A stretch of DNA of 64,000 nt from a virus, in the IMG/VR virus record IMGVR_UViG_3300023199_000127, positions 116,793-180,792 of that record. One strand, written 5' to 3'. Both the position numbers and the translations under genes were made by a program. The notes under the pieces are model-generated. The model saw only the letters and a program-made list of their open reading frames with translations. It ran no database searches and was not told where the DNA came from. Within the stretch, counting starts at the first letter, position 1. The number at the start of each line of letters is the position of its first letter. Below, piece after piece: positions 3,076-63,989 of this stretch.

Positions 3076-3668
3076 ACTTCGGTTTCTCCTTGAGCTTCTT
3101 CATGCTCATCTATCAAATCGTCCGGTAATGCATCTCCATGAGCGTAGACACTACTACTAATAGTGCCCATCCTCTGGTACATGCGTTCTTCAATCGTTTC
3201 TCGTTCTTTCCCAAGCTTACTAATGAATTTCAGGAAACGCTGGAGACTCAGAACAGTAGGTTGTGCAGTCGACAGGATGTGGATTATGGCACGCAGCCCT
3301 ACCTGTGCTCCTACTGCTGCGTATACCATTTCATCTTCACAGTCATCCTCATCGACATGGTCGATGAGGTACCTCACGTCACACTCAAAAATGTCCCAGA
3401 GAAGACGGACTACGTCAACTATTCTGGGATCATCATTTTGTTCACGTGCATTTTCATAAGCAATGCAAACTGCATTCTCTGCTGCAGCTTGTAACTCACG
3501 AGATCTATTCAACAAACCCGTTATCGAAGCTCGCAGTTTTTTGGCAACACGTTCATGATCCTGAGCAGACTCAACTAGCAGCATTGCTCGTTGCCACGCT
3601 TGGTCTGCATCAAGTCCAGTATGCTCTAGATACTCAGGAAGGCCTGCCAGTCCAACACGTTGAGCCAT
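3072..3668 (-). CDS. Hypothetical helical protein
   Basis: 198 aa ORF overlapping both neighbours at start and stop. Confidence 0.6.
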   Translation of the reverse strand: MAQRVGLAGLPEYLEHTGLDADQAWQRAMLLVESAQDHERVAKKLRASITGLLNRSRELQAAAENAVCIAYENAREQNDDPRIVDVVRLLWDIFECDVRYLIDHVDEDDCEDEMVYAAVGAQVGLRAIIHILSTAQPTVLSLQRFLKFISKLGKERETIEERMYQRMGTISSSVYAHGDALPDDLIDEHEEAQGETEV

Positions 3669-4918
3669 TAGAAGGGCGTAGTCTCCTCGGAAGTCTCTGA
3701 CTCAGGATCAAAACCATCCTGTACGCCACCAACTTCCTGGAACTCAGTGAGGTTTCTAATGTCATCGCGAATCATCTCGAGAACCTCCGGGTTCTCTACG
3801 ATGAACTTCTTGGCATTGTCTTTGCCTTTGATGCGATTCTGACCCTTACTATCCTCCGGGAAGCCCTTGTACTTGTAGTAGGCACCACCCTGTAGGATTA
3901 CACCAAGAGCCATAGCGCTGTTAATAGCTGCAGCATCGGTGTCAAAGCCAAGTCCAAACTGGAAGGGCAGAGCAATCTCATGACCTTCCGTGGCAGACTG
4001 TTTGGTCTTATCGATCTTGATGATGCCATTGTAACCAAGCATCACCTTCTTCTTCTGCCCATCCGGCATGACAATATCGCCCTTGCGATCCTTGTCATAT
4101 TGTCGTCGAAGAAATAGTCTCAGGTGGGCAAAGTGCTTCAATGCAGTGCCACCCTTCTGCTGGTAGGACGTACGTCCAGTGGGATTAATGTCCTGATACA
4201 CATGGCCGATGAGAATCTGAACCATCGGATTCTCGAGGCCACCAAGCTTAAGGTTAGCAATACCCAGGAACTTACTGAGCACCTTCGGCAAAGCGGCTAC
4301 CGTATCAGCGTGTACAGTCTTCGCCACGCCATCCTGGCCAATCTTGGCAGGCTTACTCTGGATCTCCTGCGAGGTGACAAAGCCACCAAGAGAGTCGACC
4401 ACGTAGCCAACAAATGCACCAGTCTCACCAAGGTCCAGCAGCATCTGTACAAGATCTTCCATGATGGCAGTGCCAGGCAGAAGCACCAGACGAGTCAAGT
4501 CGATGCCAATATGCTCAGCATACGACTTGTCGAAAGAGTTCTCCGTATCCACCCAGATCCAGTCACCGATCTCGTTGTTCTGCATCCAGTGAGCAATGAT
4601 CTGCATGATCAAAGTGGTCTTGCCGGCGCCGGGGTTACCGAACACCGTTGTGAACTTGCCCTTCGGCAAACCGCCACCGCTAAGTCTATCAAGCTCCGGG
4701 AACGGAGTGCCAACGCGCTCGTACTCCACGAAACGCTTCATTGACTCATCGTTCGCGTAGCCCACATGTGCGCGCGGGTATTGCTCCTGCAACTTGTTCA
4801 TAAGAAGCTTCGCTTTACGCTGCTTATTCGCCTGCTCTTTCTTTAGATCAGGTTGAATAGTTAGTGCCGCCGCCTTTTTAGTGGCCTTCTTCTTCGAGGC
4901 CTTCTTCTTAGCTGCCAT
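3668..4918 (-). CDS. recA: RecA/UvsX-like recombinase
   Basis: ELDRLSGGGLPKGKFTTVFGNPGAGKTT; WVDTENSFD; YVVDSL; UvsX-like IGHVY..KGG; start placed at MAAKKK (4918). Confidence 0.92.
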   Translation of the reverse strand: MAAKKKASKKKATKKAAALTIQPDLKKEQANKQRKAKLLMNKLQEQYPRAHVGYANDESMKRFVEYERVGTPFPELDRLSGGGLPKGKFTTVFGNPGAGKTTLIMQIIAHWMQNNEIGDWIWVDTENSFDKSYAEHIGIDLTRLVLLPGTAIMEDLVQMLLDLGETGAFVGYVVDSLGGFVTSQEIQSKPAKIGQDGVAKTVHADTVAALPKVLSKFLGIANLKLGGLENPMVQILIGHVYQDINPTGRTSYQQKGGTALKHFAHLRLFLRRQYDKDRKGDIVMPDGQKKKVMLGYNGIIKIDKTKQSATEGHEIALPFQFGLGFDTDAAAINSAMALGVILQGGAYYKYKGFPEDSKGQNRIKGKDNAKKFIVENPEVLEMIRDDIRNLTEFQEVGGVQDGFDPESETSEETTPF

Positions 4919-5258
4919 GGTCCTCTTTTCTATAGTCATCCAGTTCCTCATACAGTCCAATGAAATCATCCCAGCGCAGGACAGCGAAGGTATCACCACG
5001 CTTAGTCCTATGTACCATGAGAGGCATTTTACTGTGGAGGAGGGACACTCTCAGGGTTTTCTCGATCCATTCCCTACGAAAGGCTACGCCCTCAGCGTAG
5101 CCGTTCTTCGCCTCGATCTGAAAATCCTTGGTCTGCAGGTCCGCGTCACTAAAGACAGCACCTGAGTTCAAGGTTTCTCTGATGTCATCAGGGAGGGGCC
5201 AACTGTTCTTAATGAACAGTTCCAGATCATCTCCCTGAGTCTTGTTGGGATTAGTCAT
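4908..5258 (-). CDS. Holliday junction resolvase (Hjc-like PD-(D/E)XK)
   Basis: NSGAVFSDADLQTKDFQIEAK; adjacent to recA. Confidence 0.7.
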   Translation of the reverse strand: MTNPNKTQGDDLELFIKNSWPLPDDIRETLNSGAVFSDADLQTKDFQIEAKNGYAEGVAFRREWIEKTLRVSLLHSKMPLMVHRTKRGDTFAVLRWDDFIGLYEELDDYRKEDHGS

Positions 5259-5263
5259 GCTAT

Positions 5264-5686
5264 CTAGGTAGAAATTACCAAAGGAAGGGTAAATGCTACA
5301 TTATCCCTATCACGATCTGTCTTGTCGTGAGGAGGTGCCGGGGGCGCTACAGCAGGATGCCAGTAGCCCCTGAACTTACCATGGCATCTAGCAAAACGTC
5401 CTAGATTTGTACGCTTGTAGATCAGGCTGTTCCCTGCACGATTCACTCGCACCCTATACGGCCCAGTCATGAACCTCACCCAACGCCGTTGGCGATAGGC
5501 ATAGATCTTTGCAAGCCAGACTTTACCCTGGGCTCCCTCGTTACGACACTCGGAGTACCAATACCAGCCGTTCTTCTCCGGCAGTTCATCGCTCCAAAGA
5601 GAAGAGAATGCACGACCAGAATCGATCCTCGCGGCCATGTTCCATTCCTTAACAATAGTTTCAGTCTGTCTTTGTGTACTCCACAA
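5264..5686 (-). CDS. Hypothetical protein
   Basis: ORF fills the gap exactly; W/Y/R-rich (PEKNGWYWY). Confidence 0.5.
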   Translation of the reverse strand: MWSTQRQTETIVKEWNMAARIDSGRAFSSLWSDELPEKNGWYWYSECRNEGAQGKVWLAKIYAYRQRRWVRFMTGPYRVRVNRAGNSLIYKRTNLGRFARCHGKFRGYWHPAVAPPAPPHDKTDRDRDNVAFTLPLVIST

Positions 5687-5965
5687 CTACCCATAGTCTG
5701 GCGCCCACCCCATTTCAGGCCCATCGTAGAAGACGTCATCATCGCCTCCATCTACAATATCGTCGCCAGATCTACCAGAAAGTACTAGACCGGCAGGCTG
5801 AGTGGGATCCAGACCAAGCGCAGCTCTACGTGCGCCAGCACGTTGAGTAATGCGTTTCTTGGCCGCATTCCACGTCATCCATGACACATCACGCACGATC
5901 AAACGTAGTAACGTGTAGGCGAAGAGGCCTGCTACCTGTCTAACCAGATAGTGAGGGGAACTCAT
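5687..5965 (-). CDS. Hypothetical protein
   Basis: 92 aa ORF, ATGA overlap with upstream gene. Confidence 0.45.
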   Translation of the reverse strand: MSSPHYLVRQVAGLFAYTLLRLIVRDVSWMTWNAAKKRITQRAGARRAALGLDPTQPAGLVLSGRSGDDIVDGGDDDVFYDGPEMGWAPDYG

Positions 5966-6423
5966 TCGAAGTCAGATTCTAGATCAATATCATCCGGAAC
6001 TGAATCGATCTTAGGATCCTCATCAGGGGGAAGATCATCTTCCGGCGACTTAGGCTCCGGATAATCAAGCACCGGAACCATGTTGTGCGGATCCAGATGC
6101 GAGCGTCGCTCTCCCATGTACAAGCCAAAGAGAAACGCCTCCATGAGGTGCTTGTGAATCAAGACCGCAAAGAAGGGGTGCTGAGCGAATAGACCTTGTA
6201 GCCTACGGCCCAACTGATTGACAGTGGAGTAGTGAACCTCCTCTGCATAGTCCATCAAGGCCGGTTCCTTGTCGTAGCAACGACTCTTCCATGCTTCGGA
6301 ACGACCCAGGTGAGTGGCGATCTGGGAAAATTCCTTGATCACCTTCTCGCTGATCAGGCCACGGTCATCAGGCGCCGTTGGCCGAGGGGTCTTGTCCGGG
6401 ATGGGGTTCTTGTCCTTGCTCAC
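5962..6423 (-). CDS. Hypothetical protein with acidic C-terminus
   Basis: 153 aa ORF ending DDIDLESDFE. Confidence 0.6.
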   Translation of the reverse strand: MSKDKNPIPDKTPRPTAPDDRGLISEKVIKEFSQIATHLGRSEAWKSRCYDKEPALMDYAEEVHYSTVNQLGRRLQGLFAQHPFFAVLIHKHLMEAFLFGLYMGERRSHLDPHNMVPVLDYPEPKSPEDDLPPDEDPKIDSVPDDIDLESDFE

Positions 6424-29364: not shown

Positions 29365-30582
29365 ATGCACGACAGCATCAAATTCTGTGATCACTGCGAT
29401 GAGTCCATTCCTATGGGAATGGACCGACGCCAAAGAAAGGGCAAGACGAAGTGTGGCCGATGTGCCGATCGTCTTACACGTTTCTGGCGTTTCTGGGTTG
29501 TGCTCATGTTCATTGGTACTCTCACTGCTGCTAAAGCTGTGCACCAAGGGTCTGTGAAGCGAGACAATGTCGTGAAGCAATATGTTCACGACGGTCTTCG
29601 CTTTCTAGACGGTCGTCTGACCCTGACCATCAAAGCTACCATTCAGGCCCTTGGTGATCTGCAGAGTCAGATGGACATACGTCTTGCAGAGCATCGCAGA
29701 TTGAAGGTAGAGCTGGAAAAGGTCAAGCTCGATTTTCAAGCTGCGAAAAAGCAGATTGCTCAGCGTATTACCTCCTCAACTAACAAGGTGGATGAGGTAA
29801 AACTTCATGTGAAGGAGCGCGTCAGCGTTCTTGAGTCCAAAGCTAAAGCGCTCGCTGCTGAGGTTGATACCATGAAACTCGTAAGCCCTGAAAAGCTTCG
29901 TCATGCGGCTAGGGCTACTGTCGGTATCAACGTTCGTGATAATCGCAGGTTGTGGAGATTCGGTAGCGGTATCATCTTCCACCGAGTCCATGAGGACAAG
30001 AAGTGGCGCTATTACGTACACACCTGCTATCACGTTATTGAAACCCATATCAATACCCGTGAGACGTCTAAGCATAACCCCGTGCTTAAGGTCACTGTCT
30101 TCGATGATGTTGGCCGCTTGATGCCCACTGGAGAATTCGAGCTTAGAACTGAGACCAACTTCAAACAAGCACAGTCTCATCGAGGTGTGACTGACTACTC
30201 AGTGCTTAGCTTTGTGTCCGAAAAGGAACATGCAATCATCCCCTATGCTACGGACGAGGAAAGCCGGTCTATGCAGATCGGCGATCCTGTCCTTATCACT
30301 GGTGTCCTGCCCACCGAGCGACCTGCCATCTACTATGGAACTGTCGCATCACTGACCTCGTCTGCATCGGGGTGCATGGCTATTCAGGGAATGGCATGGC
30401 CGGGAATGAGCGGTGGAGCCATCTTGGACCGAAGGACGATGAAAGTCATCGGCATCATGCAGATGTTACCCTCGAGGCCGGCGCCAGGTCCCTTCAGAGC
30501 TCCTGGTGCACTGAACAACGGTCTGGGCTACATTACCCAGATCCATCGCATCGACAAACGCTTCAGGCTCAAGATCAAGTAG
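29365..30582 (+). CDS. Membrane-anchored trypsin-like serine protease with N-terminal zinc finger and coiled coil
   Basis: CDHC..CGRC; TM helix FWRFWVVLMFIGTL; heptad region; triad TCYHV / TDYSVL / PGMSGG; the only plus-strand gene. Confidence 0.85.
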   Translation: MHDSIKFCDHCDESIPMGMDRRQRKGKTKCGRCADRLTRFWRFWVVLMFIGTLTAAKAVHQGSVKRDNVVKQYVHDGLRFLDGRLTLTIKATIQALGDLQSQMDIRLAEHRRLKVELEKVKLDFQAAKKQIAQRITSSTNKVDEVKLHVKERVSVLESKAKALAAEVDTMKLVSPEKLRHAARATVGINVRDNRRLWRFGSGIIFHRVHEDKKWRYYVHTCYHVIETHINTRETSKHNPVLKVTVFDDVGRLMPTGEFELRTETNFKQAQSHRGVTDYSVLSFVSEKEHAIIPYATDEESRSMQIGDPVLITGVLPTERPAIYYGTVASLTSSASGCMAIQGMAWPGMSGGAILDRRTMKVIGIMQMLPSRPAPGPFRAPGALNNGLGYITQIHRIDKRFRLKIK

Positions 30583-30864: not shown

Positions 30865-31491
30865 TCATCGACAAATCCCACACAATGCGAATCGCAGCAT
30901 CGGGATATCGTGCTGCCGATCCAAGGCCTTCAGTGCCTTGCAGATCAACTTAAAGTGACGCCTCCACGACCGATTGCCGTGCAGATACTTCTTGATGATG
31001 TCCCACGCTTCCTTCTCAGTGATGTCATCCGTATCCGGATCTTCATCATCATCTTCGCCGTCACTCGGAGGCTGTGGCGCCGAGGGTGGCTCATCCTCCG
31101 AACAAGGAAGGTCGAAGTATTCGACCAACTGAGGAATCTCACACGGATCGTGAATTCCGTTGATCGGGTGCAGGATGCCTAGGGTAGGAGCCCAAAAGGC
31201 GCTCGGGATGAACGTGCCATCCTCCTTAAACCACTCGAGCGGCAGGGCGTAGTCCTGCAGCTCGTCATACGGGATCACATTGATCTTGTCGTGAACCTCG
31301 TGCCAGAAGAACGCGATGGTATTTCCGCGTTCACTGACACAGAAGATGTACATCGGGAAGTCCTCAGCCGCCGGAATGGCCGGCGTGTTAAACAGGGTAC
31401 AGTTATACGCCTCAAGAGAGTCGTTATCTGACCCGCGATGACACCCGATAGTCGCTAGCGCGACCAACAGAGAAAGCATGGAGTGTTTCAT
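30865..31491 (-). CDS. Predicted lipoprotein with acidic linker
   Basis: MKHSMLSLLVALATIG-C lipobox-like signal; PSDGEDDDEDPDTDD. Confidence 0.65.
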   Translation of the reverse strand: MKHSMLSLLVALATIGCHRGSDNDSLEAYNCTLFNTPAIPAAEDFPMYIFCVSERGNTIAFFWHEVHDKINVIPYDELQDYALPLEWFKEDGTFIPSAFWAPTLGILHPINGIHDPCEIPQLVEYFDLPCSEDEPPSAPQPPSDGEDDDEDPDTDDITEKEAWDIIKKYLHGNRSWRRHFKLICKALKALDRQHDIPMLRFALCGICR

Positions 31492-32204
31492 AGGACGATT
31501 TCAATTTCGAACTCAGATGAGCTATGGTGTCGCATTTTCATGGTGCGCACCCCTGTCTTTATTCCGATCGGAATTCCCTCTTTGTAGATCGTCTTCAAGC
31601 GACGAAGATAGAAGACTTGATCGGAATACATGATTGTCGTGGGCCCACCATAGGGCCGCAAACGCATTGGTTGAATGTTCTGACGTACCTGATTGCAGAT
31701 CAGTACTGCGGTGTCTTTTGCAGAGGACGCTGCAGCAGCAATCTGCTGATAAGCGTCTTTCACAAAGGCGTTGTAGTCGTCAATGTCCATATCGGCCGTC
31801 AGGCCGCCCAGGGAGTCCACCACGACGAGATTGACGGCTGAGGCACCCACCAGAGCCAAAATCAGCTCAAGGCCCTCCTGGGGCCCTGAGGGCCGTGCTA
31901 AGAGGACCTTATCAAGCTCCACATCCCGATGGGCAGCCATTTGAGCATGGAAAGCATTGTCCAGGTCTATCCACGCGACGCTATAGTCAAGACTGATAGC
32001 CGAGGAAGCCGCAATCAGGGCGAGCTGCGTTTTCCCAGTAGCGGAATCTCCATAGAGCATTGTGATGCCCCCAGAGTAGATTCCGCCACTCAGCTCGTCC
32101 AGATCGGGAATCGTCCACGGGATCTGGCATTGTTCCTCGGACCATTTGGCTCGTTCACGACCCATTTGCTGGATCAGATTCAGGGAAAGCTGTAGATTAT
32201 CCAT
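31488..32204 (-). CDS. Short RecA paralog (ATPase core only)
   Basis: LDELSGGIYSGGITMLYGDSATGKT; WIDLDNAF; LVVVDSLGGL; LICNQVR. Confidence 0.85.
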   Translation of the reverse strand: MDNLQLSLNLIQQMGRERAKWSEEQCQIPWTIPDLDELSGGIYSGGITMLYGDSATGKTQLALIAASSAISLDYSVAWIDLDNAFHAQMAAHRDVELDKVLLARPSGPQEGLELILALVGASAVNLVVVDSLGGLTADMDIDDYNAFVKDAYQQIAAAASSAKDTAVLICNQVRQNIQPMRLRPYGGPTTIMYSDQVFYLRRLKTIYKEGIPIGIKTGVRTMKMRHHSSSEFEIEIVL

Positions 32205-33560: not shown

Positions 33561-33596
33561 AAAAAAATAGCCCGCAGGTCGTTAAACCTGCGGGCT
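33561..33596 (-). terminator. Rho-independent terminator closing the RNAP operon
   Basis: AGCCCGCAGGT-CGTTAA-ACCTGCGGGCT, then ATTTTTTT on the minus strand. Confidence 0.85.
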
Positions 33597-33646: not shown

Positions 33647-34138
33647 TTAGGGGTTGTCATTTGAATGTGGTTGTGAATTGGACCAATTGAGGGAAACAAA
33701 CTTCCCCCAAAAGAATTTCCAAGTCGGGTATGTGAGCGGCTCCCATCTGTCATTGAAGATCATTGGGTTTGCTCTATTGACTTGATAGAACTGATCACGT
33801 GACGCAACCAGTCCGCCAGGATTCGTGTCCATGAGCTTGTTGTACATCTGCCTACTAATGTGGATTCCCTCGATGTGAATCCACATCACTGCTTCACCTG
33901 CAAAAATACAGGTGAAGGTGGTTGCCTCTGCACACATGCGGCCGTGACTCATAGTCACTAGCCGATTTTGCAGGTCGTCCCAATGGATCCGATAATTGGA
34001 ATCCTCTGGACAGATGTAAATGTCACCATCCAGAAAGGTCCAGTCTTTGAATTGCTGGTACTCTTTCATGTAATAGTGATCACGAATAGCTCGAATGATG
34101 TGATCTGACTTTGCGGTGGGATCGGAGGTGCTACTCAT
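33647..34138 (-). CDS. Hypothetical protein directly downstream of the beta-like gene
   Basis: Start MSSTSDP overlaps the beta stop. Confidence 0.6.
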   Translation of the reverse strand: MSSTSDPTAKSDHIIRAIRDHYYMKEYQQFKDWTFLDGDIYICPEDSNYRIHWDDLQNRLVTMSHGRMCAEATTFTCIFAGEAVMWIHIEGIHISRQMYNKLMDTNPGGLVASRDQFYQVNRANPMIFNDRWEPLTYPTWKFFWGKFVSLNWSNSQPHSNDNP

Positions 34139-35903
34139 GAGCAAATTTCTCCGGTTCCAGCACGCTAGCGACACTGCTGAAGTACTTCACACCAGCCATG
34201 TTCTCTCGCAGGGACGCATCGACAATATCGACGAGCCCATGAGATTCCATGGCGATCAGCTTTGCTAGGTCGCGCTTCTGCCCACCCAGACGCCCGCTAT
34301 TGATCGGTACGCCGTGGTGGTTGGTTGCCTGAGCGCCAGTCTGGACAGTTGCCTGCTCTTGAGCCAGCTTATCCAGCCGAATCATGTACACAGGAGCGAC
34401 AAAGGTGCATTCGGGCAGCGGCATCTTCTTCAAGAAGAGCTGCTCCTTGGCGCCATAACCCTCTTGCACCAAAGTCTCGAAAGACGGCGCATCATGGTTG
34501 TACTTCAAGAAGAGCTGTTGACCATGAGGCATAATAAAACGCCTGCCCAACATGGAGCACTTCTTGTTTGCCATCATCTCCCACAGAAGTCCCATCGCCT
34601 TCCGGGCGATGATGGACTCCGGGCTAATGCAGGCATCCACGGTCTTGCCCTGCACAGTGTGCGGCATCTGATGATCCGGAACCACTCGCACCACTCCCTT
34701 GGTTCCGAATCGAGTAGTCACCTTGTCCCCAGTCTGCAGGGGGGCACGGCGAGCCAACCAGAAGCGCCACCTGAGAACAGGCTTGTCCTGCTTCATAGAG
34801 CTAGTCACCGTGATACGGTCGACCCAACCCTCGGTAAGCAGACGCTTGGAGTAGAACTCCACGCGCTGGCCATCGACATCAGTGCCGATAGCCAACAGGG
34901 CGCCTCGTTCCACCTCGTTACCCTGCTTGACCTTCAGTTCGAGCTTGCCATATGTTTCAATGGTCTCCGTGTGATAACGAATGGCCGCAGATTGCTTGGC
35001 GCAGGATTCACTGACGACAATGCAATCCTCCCACGTATAGCTCCTGAAATTCATCAGGGCGACATTCCAATGCTGGCCATCCAGATTGTGTAGCTCACCT
35101 GAGACCCACGGCTCATCCGGGTTCTCCATCTCCAGAGAACCTTCGAAAGAGGTTCTCAGGAGATGTGTGCGCAGATTCATATCCACCGCCAGGGCATTGG
35201 CCATGTTTGTGCCACACAAGGGCTTGTTGCTAGGGATGGCTTGTCCAGTAAGCTTGTCGATCTTCACGCCCTCGCACATGCGATAGGCGCGATTGATCTT
35301 GGAGCCCTGAGAAGTACTGGTGGGATCCAGGATGCCGAGCAGTTCCTCCGGGAAACGAAGGTCTTCCAGATCGAGGCTACTCGGGACATCAAGGTATACC
35401 AGCTCATGAAGCGACTGACGTGCCATCTTGTTCTGAGGCAAGATCGGGAAATATACGCTATCTGCGAAGATCTTCCGGATCTTGTGACGCGCAGTTTCAT
35501 TGTGCGGAGGGGTACCGGTGAAGTAGAAATCCCGCAGGACATCGCTCATGGCCTTCTGCAGTTGGTCAATGACCACCTGAGCCGGCGTGCGAAAGATCCA
35601 GCGTCGCTGTCCCGGGGGCGCTTGCATATCGGGATAACACCGATGTACCACAACGCGCTCACCGTCACGAAGCATAAAGCTCCCGTCGGGGTTGAACTTC
35701 GGCAAAGCGATGAGCAGCTTGCAGCTCTTATACTGCGTGCCACCACACAACCAGCCATAGAACTGGACCTGATACCAGTTCTCCTCCGGACGCACATACT
35801 CTGCAGGGCAATCCACATCCTTAATGGCCGGTGCCTTAACGGACTGGATCGCACACTGCATTCCGTGTGGATTCAAGTAGTGTTCGAGGACTTTAGTGTC
35901 CAT
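34131..35903 (-). CDS. rpoB: Minimal RNA polymerase beta-like subunit (590 aa)
   Basis: PDGSFMLRDGERVVV; STSQGSKI; GQHWNVALMNFRSYTWEDCIVVSES; LQTGDKVTTRFGTKGVV; VDACISPESIIARK; YMIRLDK; GGQK. Confidence 0.9.
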   Translation of the reverse strand: MDTKVLEHYLNPHGMQCAIQSVKAPAIKDVDCPAEYVRPEENWYQVQFYGWLCGGTQYKSCKLLIALPKFNPDGSFMLRDGERVVVHRCYPDMQAPPGQRRWIFRTPAQVVIDQLQKAMSDVLRDFYFTGTPPHNETARHKIRKIFADSVYFPILPQNKMARQSLHELVYLDVPSSLDLEDLRFPEELLGILDPTSTSQGSKINRAYRMCEGVKIDKLTGQAIPSNKPLCGTNMANALAVDMNLRTHLLRTSFEGSLEMENPDEPWVSGELHNLDGQHWNVALMNFRSYTWEDCIVVSESCAKQSAAIRYHTETIETYGKLELKVKQGNEVERGALLAIGTDVDGQRVEFYSKRLLTEGWVDRITVTSSMKQDKPVLRWRFWLARRAPLQTGDKVTTRFGTKGVVRVVPDHQMPHTVQGKTVDACISPESIIARKAMGLLWEMMANKKCSMLGRRFIMPHGQQLFLKYNHDAPSFETLVQEGYGAKEQLFLKKMPLPECTFVAPVYMIRLDKLAQEQATVQTGAQATNHHGVPINSGRLGGQKRDLAKLIAMESHGLVDIVDASLRENMAGVKYFSSVASVLEPEKFAHE

Positions 35904-35909
35904 GCTTCC

Positions 35910-36242
35910 CTAACCTCCGTTGCTCTTGTTGTATTTGTTGAGCTTGGCGTAAGCTTCCTCCGTAGCTTTCCAGCCAAGAGCCTTGCACACAATGTCAATG
36001 GTCTCCATATCGACTGAGGGCCCACCAGCGACTTCGATAGTGACTTCCCTATCGGTCAGCTCCCGGCCTTCGTTGTCATACACCTGACAGGTGAGCTTGA
36101 CCATGCCGATATAGCGACTATTCTCGTGGACCTCATCGTACTCAATGTAGTCAAGGAGATCTTTGTGTATCTCCTTGTTCTCTTCGTTCAAGATCTCGTG
36201 CTCCCTTTCCTTGTCGAAGTGTCTATCCTGTTTGCTGCTCAC
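35910..36242 (-). CDS. Small protein between the two RNAP subunit genes
   Basis: Probable GTG start at 36242 overlapping the beta' stop (track start 36317). Confidence 0.6.
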   Translation of the reverse strand: MSSKQDRHFDKEREHEILNEENKEIHKDLLDYIEYDEVHENSRYIGMVKLTCQVYDNEGRELTDREVTIEVAGGPSVDMETIDIVCKALGWKATEEAYAKLNKYNKSNGG

Positions 36243-37908
36243 TGAGCACCTTCTTGAGACGCTCAGTGTGAAGCGTCCATGCCTTGTTACAGACACCAAA
36301 CTTGTCAGTGTCGCCATGTCTGAGGAGTCGCACAGCCAGACCCTGGCTGTAGCGATCTCCCGAAATCATTTCGTGGATGGGGCAGTACCGCAGGGAAATC
36401 TGCGTAAGTCCCACGAATCGCTCCGGCAACATGTTGTTGAACCGCTCCATCATGTTGATGCCGAACTGCTTGCGCAACTTCTTGCGCAGCATATCGAAGA
36501 TGGTATCGGCGGTCATACTACCAACTTGTCGAAGGAGACGCATGTAGGACTTCTTCTCCTTGCCTGCCGGCAAGATCTCATCCAGGACTATTCGTGCGGG
36601 ATACACGAGATAGATGACCTCAATCATCGTCTTTGCTTCCCGCGGCTCAATGTCCAGTTTCTGCAGCTCGGCAAGTGCTTCCTCTACAGATGCTTGTGCC
36701 CATGCACCGGTCTGATTGAGGATCTTCAGGACATGGAAGGGGTCATATCCTGCTTCGTGCTTGGAATCCAGCAGGATTTGCTGCAGTCGCTCCGAAAGAT
36801 AGTTTGCTGAACGGAGCCACGTACGATTCCAACCAGCCAGCACCTTCAGGCGATTGGAGGCTGCTCCGATGGGACCCAAAAGGGTCTTCATCTTCAGCAT
36901 GTCATGATTCTTATCGAGCGTCCTCTCCCACCACTCATCGACTTCCAGAGCCGATGCCATCTCATCGCACGCCTCATGGAGGCCTTCCTTGCCGCTTGTG
37001 CGATCGATAGTCTTCCAGCCATCGGGACATGCATCCAGAACCTGCTCAGGTGAGATCGAGAAACCAGTTGTGACAAACCGCTCCTTACCATCCTCCTTGG
37101 CACGCTCCCAGTCAACCACTTGGCTGGGATTTTCGTACAGAGCCTGCTTGGACCAGCCGCCATGCACGAGGCAAAATTCCATCAAATGGTCCTTTGCCTC
37201 CTGCTGGCACTCCGGCGTATCTGGAATCGGGAACCAATAGAGACAATCACCATCGCAGTCTGCACCAAGCTGCTCAAAGAGCAGCGGATGCATCTCGATG
37301 ACGTCGTCAGGGCTCTTCATAGCTCTGACGATCTCCAGTGACCCGTCCCAGATAGTGGGATCGCGGCCGATCATGATGAAATCACCATGCTGCAGTTCTG
37401 CATGGTCGAAGAACTTGCCCGGCAGCGCAACGTACTCCGGATCATGGTTAGCGTTCGGGACGAGCACAGCTCGTCCAGATCGCTTCACACGTGCACCGAC
37501 AATCACGTTACGAATCAGGCCATTCTTCGAGGCCAGATGGCTGATGGCTCGCTTCTGATAAGCTGACACCATCGCCTGAATGGCCTTCTCCGGCGCCTCC
37601 CCTTCCTCATACTGAAGGAGTACCCGCGCCAACTGATTGGCAGTGAACATCAGCGGGTGCACTGTCCACAGGCCCTGGTTATTCTGGACCTCGATGGGCG
37701 GCACACGAACCCGGTTGATCTGCCGGCCTGCGTAATCCGCTACTGCCACTGGCAGCTGGATCCACGCACCGTTCTTACGGATCTTCGGATCCAGAACGGT
37801 ACCATCGATGTTCTGCACCTTCTCCGGATCAATGATCGGAGGTAGGTCATCGGTGAGGACGGGCCTACCGTCCACATTGGTTTCGGCGATGATTACCGGA
37901 TGAATCAC
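36223..37908 (-). CDS. rpoC: Minimal RNA polymerase beta'-like subunit (561 aa)
   Basis: GLIRNVIVGARVKRSGRAVL; IGRDPT; IEMHPL; GADCDGD at 37246-37266; bridge-helix-like IGAASNRLKVLA; trigger-loop-like QQILLDSKH. Confidence 0.9.
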   Translation of the reverse strand: MIHPVIIAETNVDGRPVLTDDLPPIIDPEKVQNIDGTVLDPKIRKNGAWIQLPVAVADYAGRQINRVRVPPIEVQNNQGLWTVHPLMFTANQLARVLLQYEEGEAPEKAIQAMVSAYQKRAISHLASKNGLIRNVIVGARVKRSGRAVLVPNANHDPEYVALPGKFFDHAELQHGDFIMIGRDPTIWDGSLEIVRAMKSPDDVIEMHPLLFEQLGADCDGDCLYWFPIPDTPECQQEAKDHLMEFCLVHGGWSKQALYENPSQVVDWERAKEDGKERFVTTGFSISPEQVLDACPDGWKTIDRTSGKEGLHEACDEMASALEVDEWWERTLDKNHDMLKMKTLLGPIGAASNRLKVLAGWNRTWLRSANYLSERLQQILLDSKHEAGYDPFHVLKILNQTGAWAQASVEEALAELQKLDIEPREAKTMIEVIYLVYPARIVLDEILPAGKEKKSYMRLLRQVGSMTADTIFDMLRKKLRKQFGINMMERFNNMLPERFVGLTQISLRYCPIHEMISGDRYSQGLAVRLLRHGDTDKFGVCNKAWTLHTERLKKVLSEQQTG

Positions 37909-38153
37909 GCCGCACCTCCGACGGACTGCAGGACCTTGCTACGCTGCAACAAAAGCAGCTTGTGCTGGTCCTTGGCATCGGACTGCTCGATCACGGCCAC
38001 GAAGGCTCGGAAGATCCACTTGAATCCGAGGACATTCCACACCAGGTAGAACAAGGTGTAGGCGCCACGGAAGAGCAGCTTTTCCAAACCTTCAATGAGT
38101 GCAAGGACGACATCCAGACATGCGTTCATGGACTTCTTACTCCTGTTGGTCAT
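37905..38153 (-). CDS. Small membrane protein
   Basis: Hydrophobic LFYLVWNVLGFKWIF; ATGA coupling to beta'. Confidence 0.55.
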   Translation of the reverse strand: MTNRSKKSMNACLDVVLALIEGLEKLLFRGAYTLFYLVWNVLGFKWIFRAFVAVIEQSDAKDQHKLLLLQRSKVLQSVGGAA

Positions 38154-38421
38154 AGCTTCCCTTCGATTCCCAATACCGCTGACAAACGGATTTGAGGAAT
38201 ACTATCAAATCTGCGTGGGATGAAAACACCGTGTCACCGGTGATCATTACTCCACCTAAGGCTTGGTCCGACATAATGCGGACCTGAAGTTGGGTGTCAC
38301 CAATCTCATCAAGCATCGTGAGGAGACTGGCAGGTGTATCGCGAGTGAACTGCGTGGTTTGGCCCTCGGCCAACCACGTGCCATCGCTAGGAGGTTTCGG
38401 AGGCAGCGAACTCTTCGACAT
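38137..38421 (-). CDS. Hypothetical protein
   Basis: 94 aa ORF. Confidence 0.55.
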   Translation of the reverse strand: MSKSSLPPKPPSDGTWLAEGQTTQFTRDTPASLLTMLDEIGDTQLQVRIMSDQALGGVMITGDTVFSSHADLIVFLKSVCQRYWESKGSYDQQE

Positions 38422-38770
38422 CCTCGTCCACTTCCTCGATCGGCTCGTCGTAATTCTCGATGGTGCCGACGAGGAACGGGATGATGACGAGCAGCTGCGC
38501 TGCTCCCGGCCCGCGTGACGACTGGGTCATCCGATACACCGTACCGCCCATATTCAGGCTCACAATCGGCTGACCACGATCTGTGTACCGCTTCTTGATG
38601 CGGTATCCGGAGATGATGCGCTCGTCGTCATCGGAGAGGAGAAACTGAAATCCCTCTTCGAGGACGCGCTTCACATGTATATCGTCGACTTGTCCGCCTC
38701 CGATTTCGGCGACAAAATCGGAGCCGCCATGGAATACGCGTCCCGTGGCGGCTTGTCTTTGCTTGCCCAT
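38387..38770 (-). CDS. Hypothetical protein
   Basis: CAGGAGG RBS before MGKQRQ. Confidence 0.55.
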   Translation of the reverse strand: MGKQRQAATGRVFHGGSDFVAEIGGGQVDDIHVKRVLEEGFQFLLSDDDERIISGYRIKKRYTDRGQPIVSLNMGGTVYRMTQSSRGPGAAQLLVIIPFLVGTIENYDEPIEEVDEDVEEFAASETS

Positions 38771-38835
38771 TGCTTCTACCTCCTGGTTGAAATTTGGAAC
38801 ACGATTAAGTGTGGTGACACCCAACCGACGTTGCA

Positions 38836-39204
38836 CTAAGCGACGGCGGTCTGTTCTTCGAAGAGTGTTTGTGCCGCCTCTTCCAAAGTCTGAAACACAG
38901 TCCCATCAATCACGATCTTTCGCATTACGATCGTGAATTGCGTAGGATCTGCTTGGCTAGGAACTTCTAGCTCTGCCCAGCTGATCTCATGCCCAGCTCT
39001 AACGAGCATGGCCCACGGATCATCCGATTGCCAAGCATTCTGTTGAATCACACTGATCTTAGCCATGTCATTATGTAGCGTGACATGTCTCTGTCCAGTG
39101 CTAGATAGCACATGGATCTCCCAGCGATTTTTCGATGTTTCAAAGTGGTCGGATTCACTATGCAGAGCTTTGTGTGCGAACTCCGCAACCTTATCAAATT
39201 TCAC
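38836..39204 (-). CDS. Hypothetical protein
   Basis: 122 aa ORF. Confidence 0.55.
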   Translation of the reverse strand: MKFDKVAEFAHKALHSESDHFETSKNRWEIHVLSSTGQRHVTLHNDMAKISVIQQNAWQSDDPWAMLVRAGHEISWAELEVPSQADPTQFTIVMRKIVIDGTVFQTLEEAAQTLFEEQTAVA

Positions 39205-39731
39205 TATTCGAACACTCCTTCTTCGTGCTGAGCGATGAACATGCTAATCTCTTCATCGCTATCCGCGGCGTTTGCGATTGCGCCTGCGACCTTGATATCG
39301 GGCACAGCCATCATCTCCATTACCTCTCGGATCTTTTGCACCTCGTCCTGCTGGGCTTCGTAGACGATCACAATGCTCGTACGCCATACGCCGCGGTCAT
39401 TTGTTCCAATACGGCTAATGGCGCAATTCAGAATCCTATTCTCCTTGAGAAGCCGGGCAATGATAGGGGCATAGTTCTTTGGGATGTACCCGATACGCTG
39501 CGAAGCAGTATCGGGTACATCCCTCGGCTTGCCTCTAGGTGGTACCCAGACACTCACCGCGTTCTTGTCTTTGGGATTGCTAGGTTCTGGTAGAAGGTTC
39601 ACCGCTTGCTTCGGGAGGAGCAAGCGGAGAAGTCCCCGGTCTTCCTGGTAATCCGTGCCAAAGACTGGAAGAATGATTTCCTCGGGCCAAGATTCGGGGC
39701 GAGGATTCTGAAGTACGTCTTGTTGAGCCAT
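39204..39731 (-). CDS. HIRAN domain protein
   Basis: VNLLPEPSNPKDKNAVSV..IGYIPKNYAPII. Confidence 0.8.
   Translation of the reverse strand: MAQQDVLQNPRPESWPEEIILPVFGTDYQEDRGLLRLLLPKQAVNLLPEPSNPKDKNAVSVWVPPRGKPRDVPDTASQRIGYIPKNYAPIIARLLKENRILNCAISRIGTNDRGVWRTSIVIVYEAQQDEVQKIREVMEMMAVPDIKVAGAIANAADSDEEISMFIAQHEEGVFE

Positions 39732-63926: not shown

Positions 63927-63989
<63 letters not shown>

Follow-up and report, generated by a model that had tools for sequence, protein, structure and literature searches.

Cell-type RNA polymerases (RNAPs) are large. The phage versions studied so far come in one of two forms, divided among many pieces or made as one chain that belongs to a distant branch. 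Among very small two-barrel, DNA-dependent enzymes are YonO of the SPβ prophage, a single-chain RNAP of the clade that resembles RNA-dependent RNA polymerases, along with yeast killer-plasmid RNAP, which consists of a β-β′ fusion plus a small chain. In phiKZ and AR9, β and β′ are each split into at least two polypeptides, a fifth subunit provides specificity and two paralogous sets are present (PMC7824862, PMC7598289); the non-virion enzymes of both phages work without α and ω (PMC7598289). According to reviews, phages that have their own multisubunit RNAP have no σ, and jumbo phages that encode a σ have no RNAP (PMC7824862, PMC7598289). Phage β, β′ and σ have all been found in the virions of Salmonella phage Arash (PMC10585845), and Thermus phage P23-45 has a virion RNAP fused to the tape measure (gp96) as well as a non-virion RNAP (gp64) (PMC10770324). 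The mReC study of metagenomic phages (Weinheimer and Aylward 2020) admitted only β and β′ subunits of at least 800 amino acids (aa) with an NADxDGD motif (PMC7481178). Here we describe a pair of neighboring genes for β′- and β-like proteins in a stretch of 64,000 nucleotides (the window), which is the terminal 64 kb (positions 116,793 to 180,792) of a 180,792-bp virus record, IMG/VR IMGVR_UViG_3300023199_000127, with a CheckV completeness of 93%.

The two genes very probably specify the catalytic core of a DNA-dependent two-barrel RNAP, made by the phage and cut to roughly the universal conserved skeleton. We read them in this way because their catalytic motifs are invariant, their predicted fold spans whole subunits, both proteins are conserved across a family, and the genes are laid out as an operon. 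Sequence comparison and models together support a compact, unsplit, two-chain β′/β enzyme of about 1150 aa in total. An original prediction had picked out both reading frames; their coordinates, minus-strand orientation and β′-then-β order were borne out, and its list of catalytic motifs was essentially right, the residues being invariant on the family alignments (28 β′ sequences in alignment A1 and 18 β sequences in A2, with homologues 28–62% identical). The predicted size, 40–45% of the Escherichia coli subunits, also holds when the proteins are set against RpoB (1342 aa) and RpoC (1407 aa).

The β-like protein matches the Pfam family RNA_pol_Rpb2_6 (8.8e-22), and its family profile matches solved β chains at 2.7e-19. 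Residues D293, G392, D393, K394, K402, G403 and R434 are invariant among the 18 sequences, and E292, the first residue of the "ED" pair, is conserved in at least 90%. The region that bears the two lysines aligns with E. coli β 1051–1292, the β string GDKVTTRFGTKGVV...SPES..R falling on E. coli GDKMAGRHGNKGVI...NPLGVPSR. An AlphaFold model of the protein has a predicted local distance difference test score (pLDDT) of 83.1. In a structural comparison (VIA-align) 497 of its 590 residues, within residues 1–521, were matched to Rpb2 50–1061 (Z 26.8), and the model superimposes on Thermus β with a template modeling (TM) score of 0.6 over about 1000 columns. The flap between ED (292–293) and GDK (392–394) comprises about 100 residues, all β-strand in the model; as modeled, it is a stub (residues 305–392) without a flap-tip helix.

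For the β′-like protein, the 28-sequence family profile matches solved β′ chains at 1e-13. Residues R140, R146, R182, P184, D217, D219 and D221 are invariant in the alignment. The β′ motif GADCDGD aligns with E. coli NADFDGD, the longer string RDPTIW...HP...GADCDGD with NRAPTLH...HP...NADFDGD, and GKxGxxRxxxxGxRxxxSGRAV with the corresponding stretch of E. coli β′. The AlphaFold model, built on the family alignment, has a pLDDT of 88.6. Its residues 1–547 align with Rpb1 40–1462 (Z 17.9) and its residues 1–359 with Sulfolobus A′ 27–828 (Z 17.1). Residues 1–262 match the barrel-holding β′ chains of AR9 (7s00_d, Z 12.0) and phiKZ (7ogp_A, Z 10.9) as well as plastid RpoC1, and a structure search matched residues 286–548 to cyanobacterial RpoC2 (Z 7.4).

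A bridge helix and a trigger-loop histidine had also been predicted. The bridge helix stands: a 36-residue helix (residues 323–358) with the string GPIGAASNRLK is the bridge helix as judged by the alignment of the model to Sulfolobus A′, which we take to end just past that element. The histidine is assigned by motif resemblance, without statistical support. Immediately after the bridge helix come a helix (362–381), a loop (S-K383-H384-E-A-G) and a second helix (390–397), and the string E373..Q377..L380-D381..H384.AG...P..LKILN resembles, at the level of motif, the canonical E..TQ..LN.FH.AG of archaeal and eukaryotic enzymes. The pattern SE.L.Q..L..KH is common to β′ and gp216 of Arash, and H384 is replaced by glycine in one subclade of the family. 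Sequence comparison gave no significant support for either the bridge helix or the trigger loop; hhalign put the E. coli trigger-loop fragment on β′ residues 332–352 (E 0.064), and a phmmer search for trigger-loop similarity returned nothing. From its motif, H384 is plausibly the trigger-loop histidine. If the candidate trigger loop (372–399) is right, then the 100–200 residues that cellular enzymes have between these two elements are gone.

The N-terminal part of β′ has a helical hairpin (residues 85–101 and 107–125) just ahead of the GK..R motif, and hhalign places it on E. coli β′ 252–331, a region that presumably includes the σ-binding clamp coiled coil at about 260–309. The same part of the protein has no cysteine cluster, and its few cysteines are not conserved; both zinc sites are therefore gone. 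Like E. coli RpoB and RpoC, the pair has two barrels, the catalytic residues and alignable clamp helices. Unlike the E. coli core, it has about 42% of the length, no α or ω, no zinc-binding cysteine clusters and a flap cut to about 100 residues.

The proteins belong to a family of similarly short members. A profile search of 1.84 billion representatives recovered 82 β′ clusters (50% identity, E ≤ 1e-30), almost all of 430–620 aa. Close homologues measure 548–585 aa (β′) and 585–626 aa (β), and all 18 β homologues lie within 526–626 aa. Every member is metagenomic and unnamed. There are no close homologues among described phages: when 50,697 phage records were searched by tblastn, neither subunit had a match at 1e-5, and at E ≤ 1 the β barrel gave only Arash gp206, Vibrio D181-type proteins, jumbo-phage β pieces and bacterial contaminants. 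In IMG/VR the β profile picked up only distant forms (giant one-chain or split), and a full-text literature search found no description of a compact two-gene RNAP family. With its 82 clusters the family is abundant in metagenomes and yet includes no cultured or described member, and a whole mode of phage transcription has therefore gone unstudied.

The family is also set apart by score and by descent. With the β family hidden Markov model, members score at least 435 bits; next come the one-chain fusions P0306 and P0308, at about 92, and other fused or giant forms, with Vibrio D181 at 67, bacterial RpoB 34–57, Arash 52 and jumbo-phage pieces 35–40. On a quick IQ-TREE tree of the β catalytic region (56 rows, with P0301 and L015 omitted) the compact family is one clade (Shimodaira–Hasegawa-like approximate likelihood-ratio test, 99) whose stem measures 1.48 changes per site. 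Two very long jumbo-phage branches appear next to it, a join that the program flags as unreliable. We conclude that the compact family is a new, large, uncultured family without a resolved sister group.

How, then, does the pair compare with the described systems? As in phiKZ and AR9 (PDB 7OGP/7OGR and 7S00/7S01), there are phage β/β′ homologues and no α or ω; unlike in those phages, each subunit is one half-length chain, and there is a single set per genome. The pair is likewise distinct, as had been claimed, from the single-chain enzymes of crAss-like phages and YonO, since each of its subunits is a single full-span chain and the two are specified by separate genes. In YonO, crAss gp66 and P23-45 gp64 and gp96 both barrels are in one chain, whereas here they are on two genes, in all five related loci too, and as a separate β′/β pair the compact enzyme also differs from the killer-plasmid RNAP. 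It is plausible, as originally proposed, that it is one of the smallest two-chain RNAPs, to our knowledge of the sizes of comparable enzymes. Membership of the mReC group, which the same prediction had entertained, fails on that study's inclusion rule (PMC7481178). Like the mReC phages, this is a metagenomic tailed phage with unsplit β and β′ on a deep branch; unlike theirs, its subunits are of 561 and 590 aa and its motif is GADCDGD, so the rule excludes the compact family by design.

The closest proteins outside the family, by profile score, are the one-chain forms P0306 and P0308 (1251–1252 aa), with others of 1400–1800 aa, all metagenomic and uncharacterized. In P0306 and P0308 residues ~150–600 match the compact β profile (a match of about 92 bits that covers β positions 152–564) and residues ~720–860 the compact β′ barrel. 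Their total size is similar, but each is one polypeptide in β-then-β′ order on a separate branch. P23-45 uses two unlike polymerases, one that arrives with the tail and one that is made after infection (PMC10770324), and the tail genes of the present virus likewise encode a giant RNAP-like protein. Unlike the compact pair, gp96 and gp64 are each one chain and come from the second major clade of two-barrel enzymes, and P23-45 gp96 and P74 gp62 match compact β′ only at Z 9–10, around the barrel. Arash, also a myovirus (of about 181 kb), has β/β′ homologues together with a σ70-family protein (gp10), as does the present virus. Its gp206 (1525 aa) is β fused to the barrel half of β′ (AADYDGD near residue 1440), and the other half of β′, the C-terminal one, is gp216 (606 aa); unlike the compact pair, the two sum to about 2130 aa, are packaged in the virion and are full-size. 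Arash scores only 52 bits against the compact family and lies on a separate branch of the tree, and the two σ factors are barely alike. The Arash record (OQ632216.1) names both genes "subunit beta" (L028:4087-8664 for gp206 and L033:942-2762 for gp216).

The virus is contractile-tailed, with genes for a tail sheath and a large terminase. It also encodes a DnaE-type polymerase, ribonucleotide reductase, a helicase, UvsX-like and RecA-like proteins, RNase H, RNA ligase, polynucleotide kinase and thymidylate synthase. The first ~92 kb of the genome carries structural genes on the plus strand, and the remainder, including the RNAP genes, is on the minus strand. No gene for α, ω or σ had been recognized in the window, and that observation stands; the profiles for α and ω (PF01193 and PF01192) match nothing in the whole genome, while all 14 control genomes score. 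Elsewhere in the genome, however, lies a gene for a 250-aa σ70-family protein; it stands first in the structural-gene block, a long way from the RNAP operon. The present genome thus breaks, like that of Arash, the rule of the reviews that separates phage σ from phage RNAP. The nearest relatives of the σ are ten short phage-type σ factors (235–242 aa, 45–51% identity), followed after a sharp drop by bacterial primary-type σ factors (33–38% identity). Few of these carry names, and several that do belong to Verrucomicrobiota, which on sequence similarity is possibly a weak hint to the host. A 98.5-kb contig has one of the phage-type relatives 3.4 kb from its start; it comes from the same Joint Genome Institute (JGI) sample as the 91.9-kb contig with the closest long RNAP locus, and the same phage-type σ recurs in the sample of L019. 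From these shared samples, though from no shared contig among the relatives, we conclude that the σ and the compact RNAP probably travel together in the clade.

A 1631-aa protein encoded among the tail genes is a further candidate polymerase. Against the β′ profile, hhalign placed its GKDSVIKRYF....MTGRTVTSP on GKNGLIRNVIVGARVKRSGRAVLVPN (E 0.042), and it has a DLDFD about 110 residues past GK..GR.V..P, a spacing as in E. coli β′. It has no Pfam or PDB sequence match. From these motifs it is probably a very diverged one-chain two-barrel RNAP, in which case the compact RNAP is not the phage's only transcription device. Together, the σ, the probable one-chain polymerase of the tail and the compact RNAP suggest a program run by three polymerase devices in one phage.

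The two genes lie in an operon with the order p149 ... p82, β′, spacer open reading frame (ORF), β, ORF175 and terminator (Table 1). The GTG start of β′ shares a GTGA with the stop of the gene before it and has a GGAGG 8 nt upstream, and the ATG of β is preceded by GGAGG inside the tail of the spacer ORF, the β′ and β genes being 320 nt apart. From its sequence, the terminator-like hairpin closes the transcription unit. The operon has RNase H and HIRAN genes as neighbors at one end and RecA-like and DnaE genes at its opposite end. Five related loci were examined (L005, L006, L017, L018 and L019; identity 29–58% for β and 33–53% for β′); β′-then-β order and adjacency are retained in all five, and RNase H, HIRAN and then, downstream, DnaE are retained in the neighborhood. 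The HIRAN-domain protein (8.2e-11; window 39204–39731, minus strand) adjoins RNase H upstream of the RNAP operon; the pairing recurs in L005 and in the contig that carries P0011, and in L019 a BLAST counterpart of the HIRAN protein lies beside RNase H.

The original prediction had proposed as partners the proteins encoded at 35910 and 33647, that is, those of the spacer ORF and ORF175. Neither has a counterpart in the five related loci, and ORF175 has no family match. The spacer is replaced in relatives by an unrelated 275-aa ORF (L017:9161-9988) or an 87-aa ORF (L019:9723-9986) and is missing from L005, L006 and L018; the β′-β gap is thus a hotspot at which different relatives carry unrelated insertions (ORFs of 275 aa, 87 aa or about 100 aa) or none. 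By contrast, p149 and p82 are conserved and are for that reason the better accessory candidates. A counterpart of p82 stands directly upstream of β′ in four of the five loci (L005, L017, L018 and L019). Complete counterparts of p149, which itself lies two genes beyond p82, are found at most three genes upstream of β′ in L005, L006, L017 and L019, with a partial one at the start of the L018 contig. Searches of Pfam, PDB and the ESM Atlas gave no lead for p149, and no family, fold or Atlas lead was found for p82. A prediction of a complex of β′ with p149 scored 0.00, which counts neither for nor against binding.

Table 1. Positions of the RNAP genes, their catalytic elements and associated features (window coordinates unless a genome locus is given)
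Feature	Position	Strand	Basis or remark
β-like subunit, 590 aa (P0001)	34131..35903	-	Pfam, family profile, motifs, model
Codons β G392-G403 (GDKVTTRFGTKG), active-site lysines K394 and K402	34695..34730	-	both lysines invariant in family
Codons β E292-D293, "ED" pair in TWEDCIVVSES	35025..35030	-	alignment
β′-like subunit, 561 aa (P0002)	36223..37908	-	Pfam, family profile, motifs, model
Codons β′ A216-D221 (ADCDGD), metal-binding Asp triad of double-psi barrel	37246..37263	-	D217/D219/D221 invariant, n = 28
Bridge helix and candidate trigger loop, β′ residues 323-399	36712..36942	-	structure for helix; motif only for loop
82-aa protein (p82), long hydrophobic helix, candidate accessory	37905..38153	-	coupled to β′; alignment A4
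149-aa protein (p149), acidic C-terminal tail, candidate accessory	38387..38836	-	alignment A3
Spacer ORF between β′ and β, 135 aa as listed, probably shorter (start after β′ stop)	35910..36317	-	not conserved
ORF175, 175 aa, overlaps β stop, final gene ahead of terminator	33647..34174	-	ORF list
Intrinsic-terminator-like hairpin	33569..33596	-	12-bp stem, 8 G-C pairs, then seven T's
σ70-family protein, 250 aa, regions 1.2, 2 and 4	G000 5453-6205 (C1; locus L020)	+	outside window
1631-aa tail-gene protein, probable RNAP	G000:C1:40192-45087 (locus L022:192-5087)	+	motif and hhalign

Because each protein is represented by a single locus in the genome, has a model that runs end to end and keeps its length family-wide, we conclude that, as modeled, both are complete subunits rather than pieces of a split enzyme. 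If they were instead only the pieces that bear the double-psi β-barrels of a phiKZ/AR9-like multi-piece polymerase, with the rest encoded elsewhere, this would agree with their top PHROGs matches, both of which are to jumbo-phage "RNA polymerase beta subunit" families (phrog_3295 and phrog_2987), and with their 560–590 aa, close to the size of jumbo-phage pieces such as the 665-residue AR9 chain 7s00_C. Both models, however, cover an entire cellular subunit (β′ 1–262 corresponding to the AR9 and phiKZ chains and 286–548 to RpoC2, and β to Rpb2 50–1061), a six-frame search of the whole genome found one Rpb2_6 locus and one Rpb1_2 locus and no second match to either, and the lengths are conserved across the family, which makes a split enzyme very improbable. 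We give almost no credence to the idea that the genes are decayed, inactive leftovers of a bigger polymerase, for which their extreme shortness and the absence of zinc-binding cysteine clusters could be cited: in homologues (at least 28 for β′ and at least 18 for β) whose identity has fallen to about 30%, every catalytic residue is invariant, and open frames, a conserved length and intact translational coupling are seen as well. Several observations do weigh against a catalytic core for transcription. The C-terminal ~65 aa of β are modeled with low confidence, and the match of β′ to RNA_pol_Rpb1_2 (1e-4, 23 bits) is under the Pfam cut-off. The C-terminal half of β′ has no significant sequence match to any known β′, and its assignment depends on the predicted structure (Z 7.4 against RpoC2, with higher Z values in whole-chain matches only). 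Neither exact k-mer enrichment (52 intergenic gaps) nor mismatch-tolerant words (56 upstream regions) revealed a promoter motif above shuffled controls, and σ70-like sites in the 29–45 kb region were at chance level (14 versus 13.2); with no shared motif, nothing marks the regulon of the compact RNAP. The position of the operon among RNase H/HIRAN and RecA-like/DnaE genes, with synteny in related loci, would fit priming.

That last observation raises the alternative of a two-barrel core that supplies the neighboring DnaE replisome with primers or R-loops, or that uses RNA templates, and two-barrel enzymes do include the DNA polymerase PolD and the RNA-dependent QDE-1 (PMC10770324). The fold and motifs are, however, those of the DNA-dependent β/β′ lineage rather than of PolD or QDE-1, with QDE-1 at Z 7.5 and RDR2 at Z 8.1 as against Z 17 for Rpb1-type chains, and we consider a role in replication improbable. 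A different question is how a transcribing core would find its promoters. It could be guided by the phage σ70-family protein docked on the retained clamp helices of β′, a proposal that we regard as unlikely, although the σ is the most interesting candidate for a specificity factor. The genome does encode a σ with regions 1.2, 2 and 4, that σ belongs to a small phage-type group with one relative in the same sample as the closest long RNAP contig, β′ helices 85–101 and 107–125 align with the region of E. coli β′ (252–331) that we take to hold the σ-binding coiled coil, and in Arash the virion contains phage β, β′ and σ together (PMC10585845). Nevertheless, the identity of 33–38% to bacterial primary σ factors would suit a σ that docks on the host core, as phage σ factors usually do (PMC7598289, PMC7824862); the modeled β flap (305–392) is all-β and offers no flap-tip helix for region 4; and the σ gene, the first of the structural block, is remote from the RNAP operon. 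The similarity to primary σ factors and the missing flap-tip helix favor the host core as the partner of the σ. Slightly more doubtful, in our view, is the full composite in which compact β′/β and the phage's own σ70 would form a σ-dependent holoenzyme of about 1400 aa without α or ω. If that were true, the σ-using compact core would be the smallest promoter-specific cell-type RNAP and the first case in which a σ is shown to act on a non-cellular core.

Returning to the compact core itself, what we infer of its activity, assembly, timing and partners is as follows. The subunits would be made from one tightly coupled operon within a block of replication genes. The β′ subunit retains the clamp core with its helical hairpin, the barrel with the aspartate triad, the bridge helix, what is probably a trigger loop joined straight onto that helix, and, at the C-terminal end, a helical piece of the cleft and clamp. 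The β subunit retains remnants of the N-terminal lobe and protrusion, the hybrid-binding region, the two-lysine barrel and a short all-β flap, and its C-terminal tail probably folds only against β′. The two would assemble without α or ω, as in phiKZ and AR9. From this anatomy and by analogy with phiKZ/AR9 and P23-45, the enzyme would serve as a non-virion transcriptase for part of the program, most likely the middle or late genes, and the one-chain RNAP-like protein of the tail would begin transcription after injection. Candidates for an initiation factor would be the σ70-family protein, p149 and p82. An unsplit pair of about 1150 aa would give a natural lower bound for what the fold needs to transcribe and would offer a tractable target for structural and single-molecule work. 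It would also test the idea of cellular subunits that arose as material accreted around a pair of barrels, and it could serve as a minimal model of cell-type RNAP.

Finally, we note some other features of the record. Among the public sequencing runs listed, the stretch is contained in four DNA runs from one study and in no RNA run. The window has two recombinase-like ATPases, a 238-aa RecA-like protein near the RNAP operon (31488–32204, minus strand) and a 443-aa UvsX-like protein (3668–4999, minus strand). A run of about 20 copies of (GT)n lies at window ~63942–63983, less than 60 nt from the contig end; the record is linear without end repeats, and so the true genome end may lie beyond the contig. 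A single plus-strand gene within the minus-strand block (window 29365–30582) codes for a trypsin-like peptidase of 405 aa (Trypsin_2, 2e-11) whose N-terminus weakly matches a double zinc ribbon.

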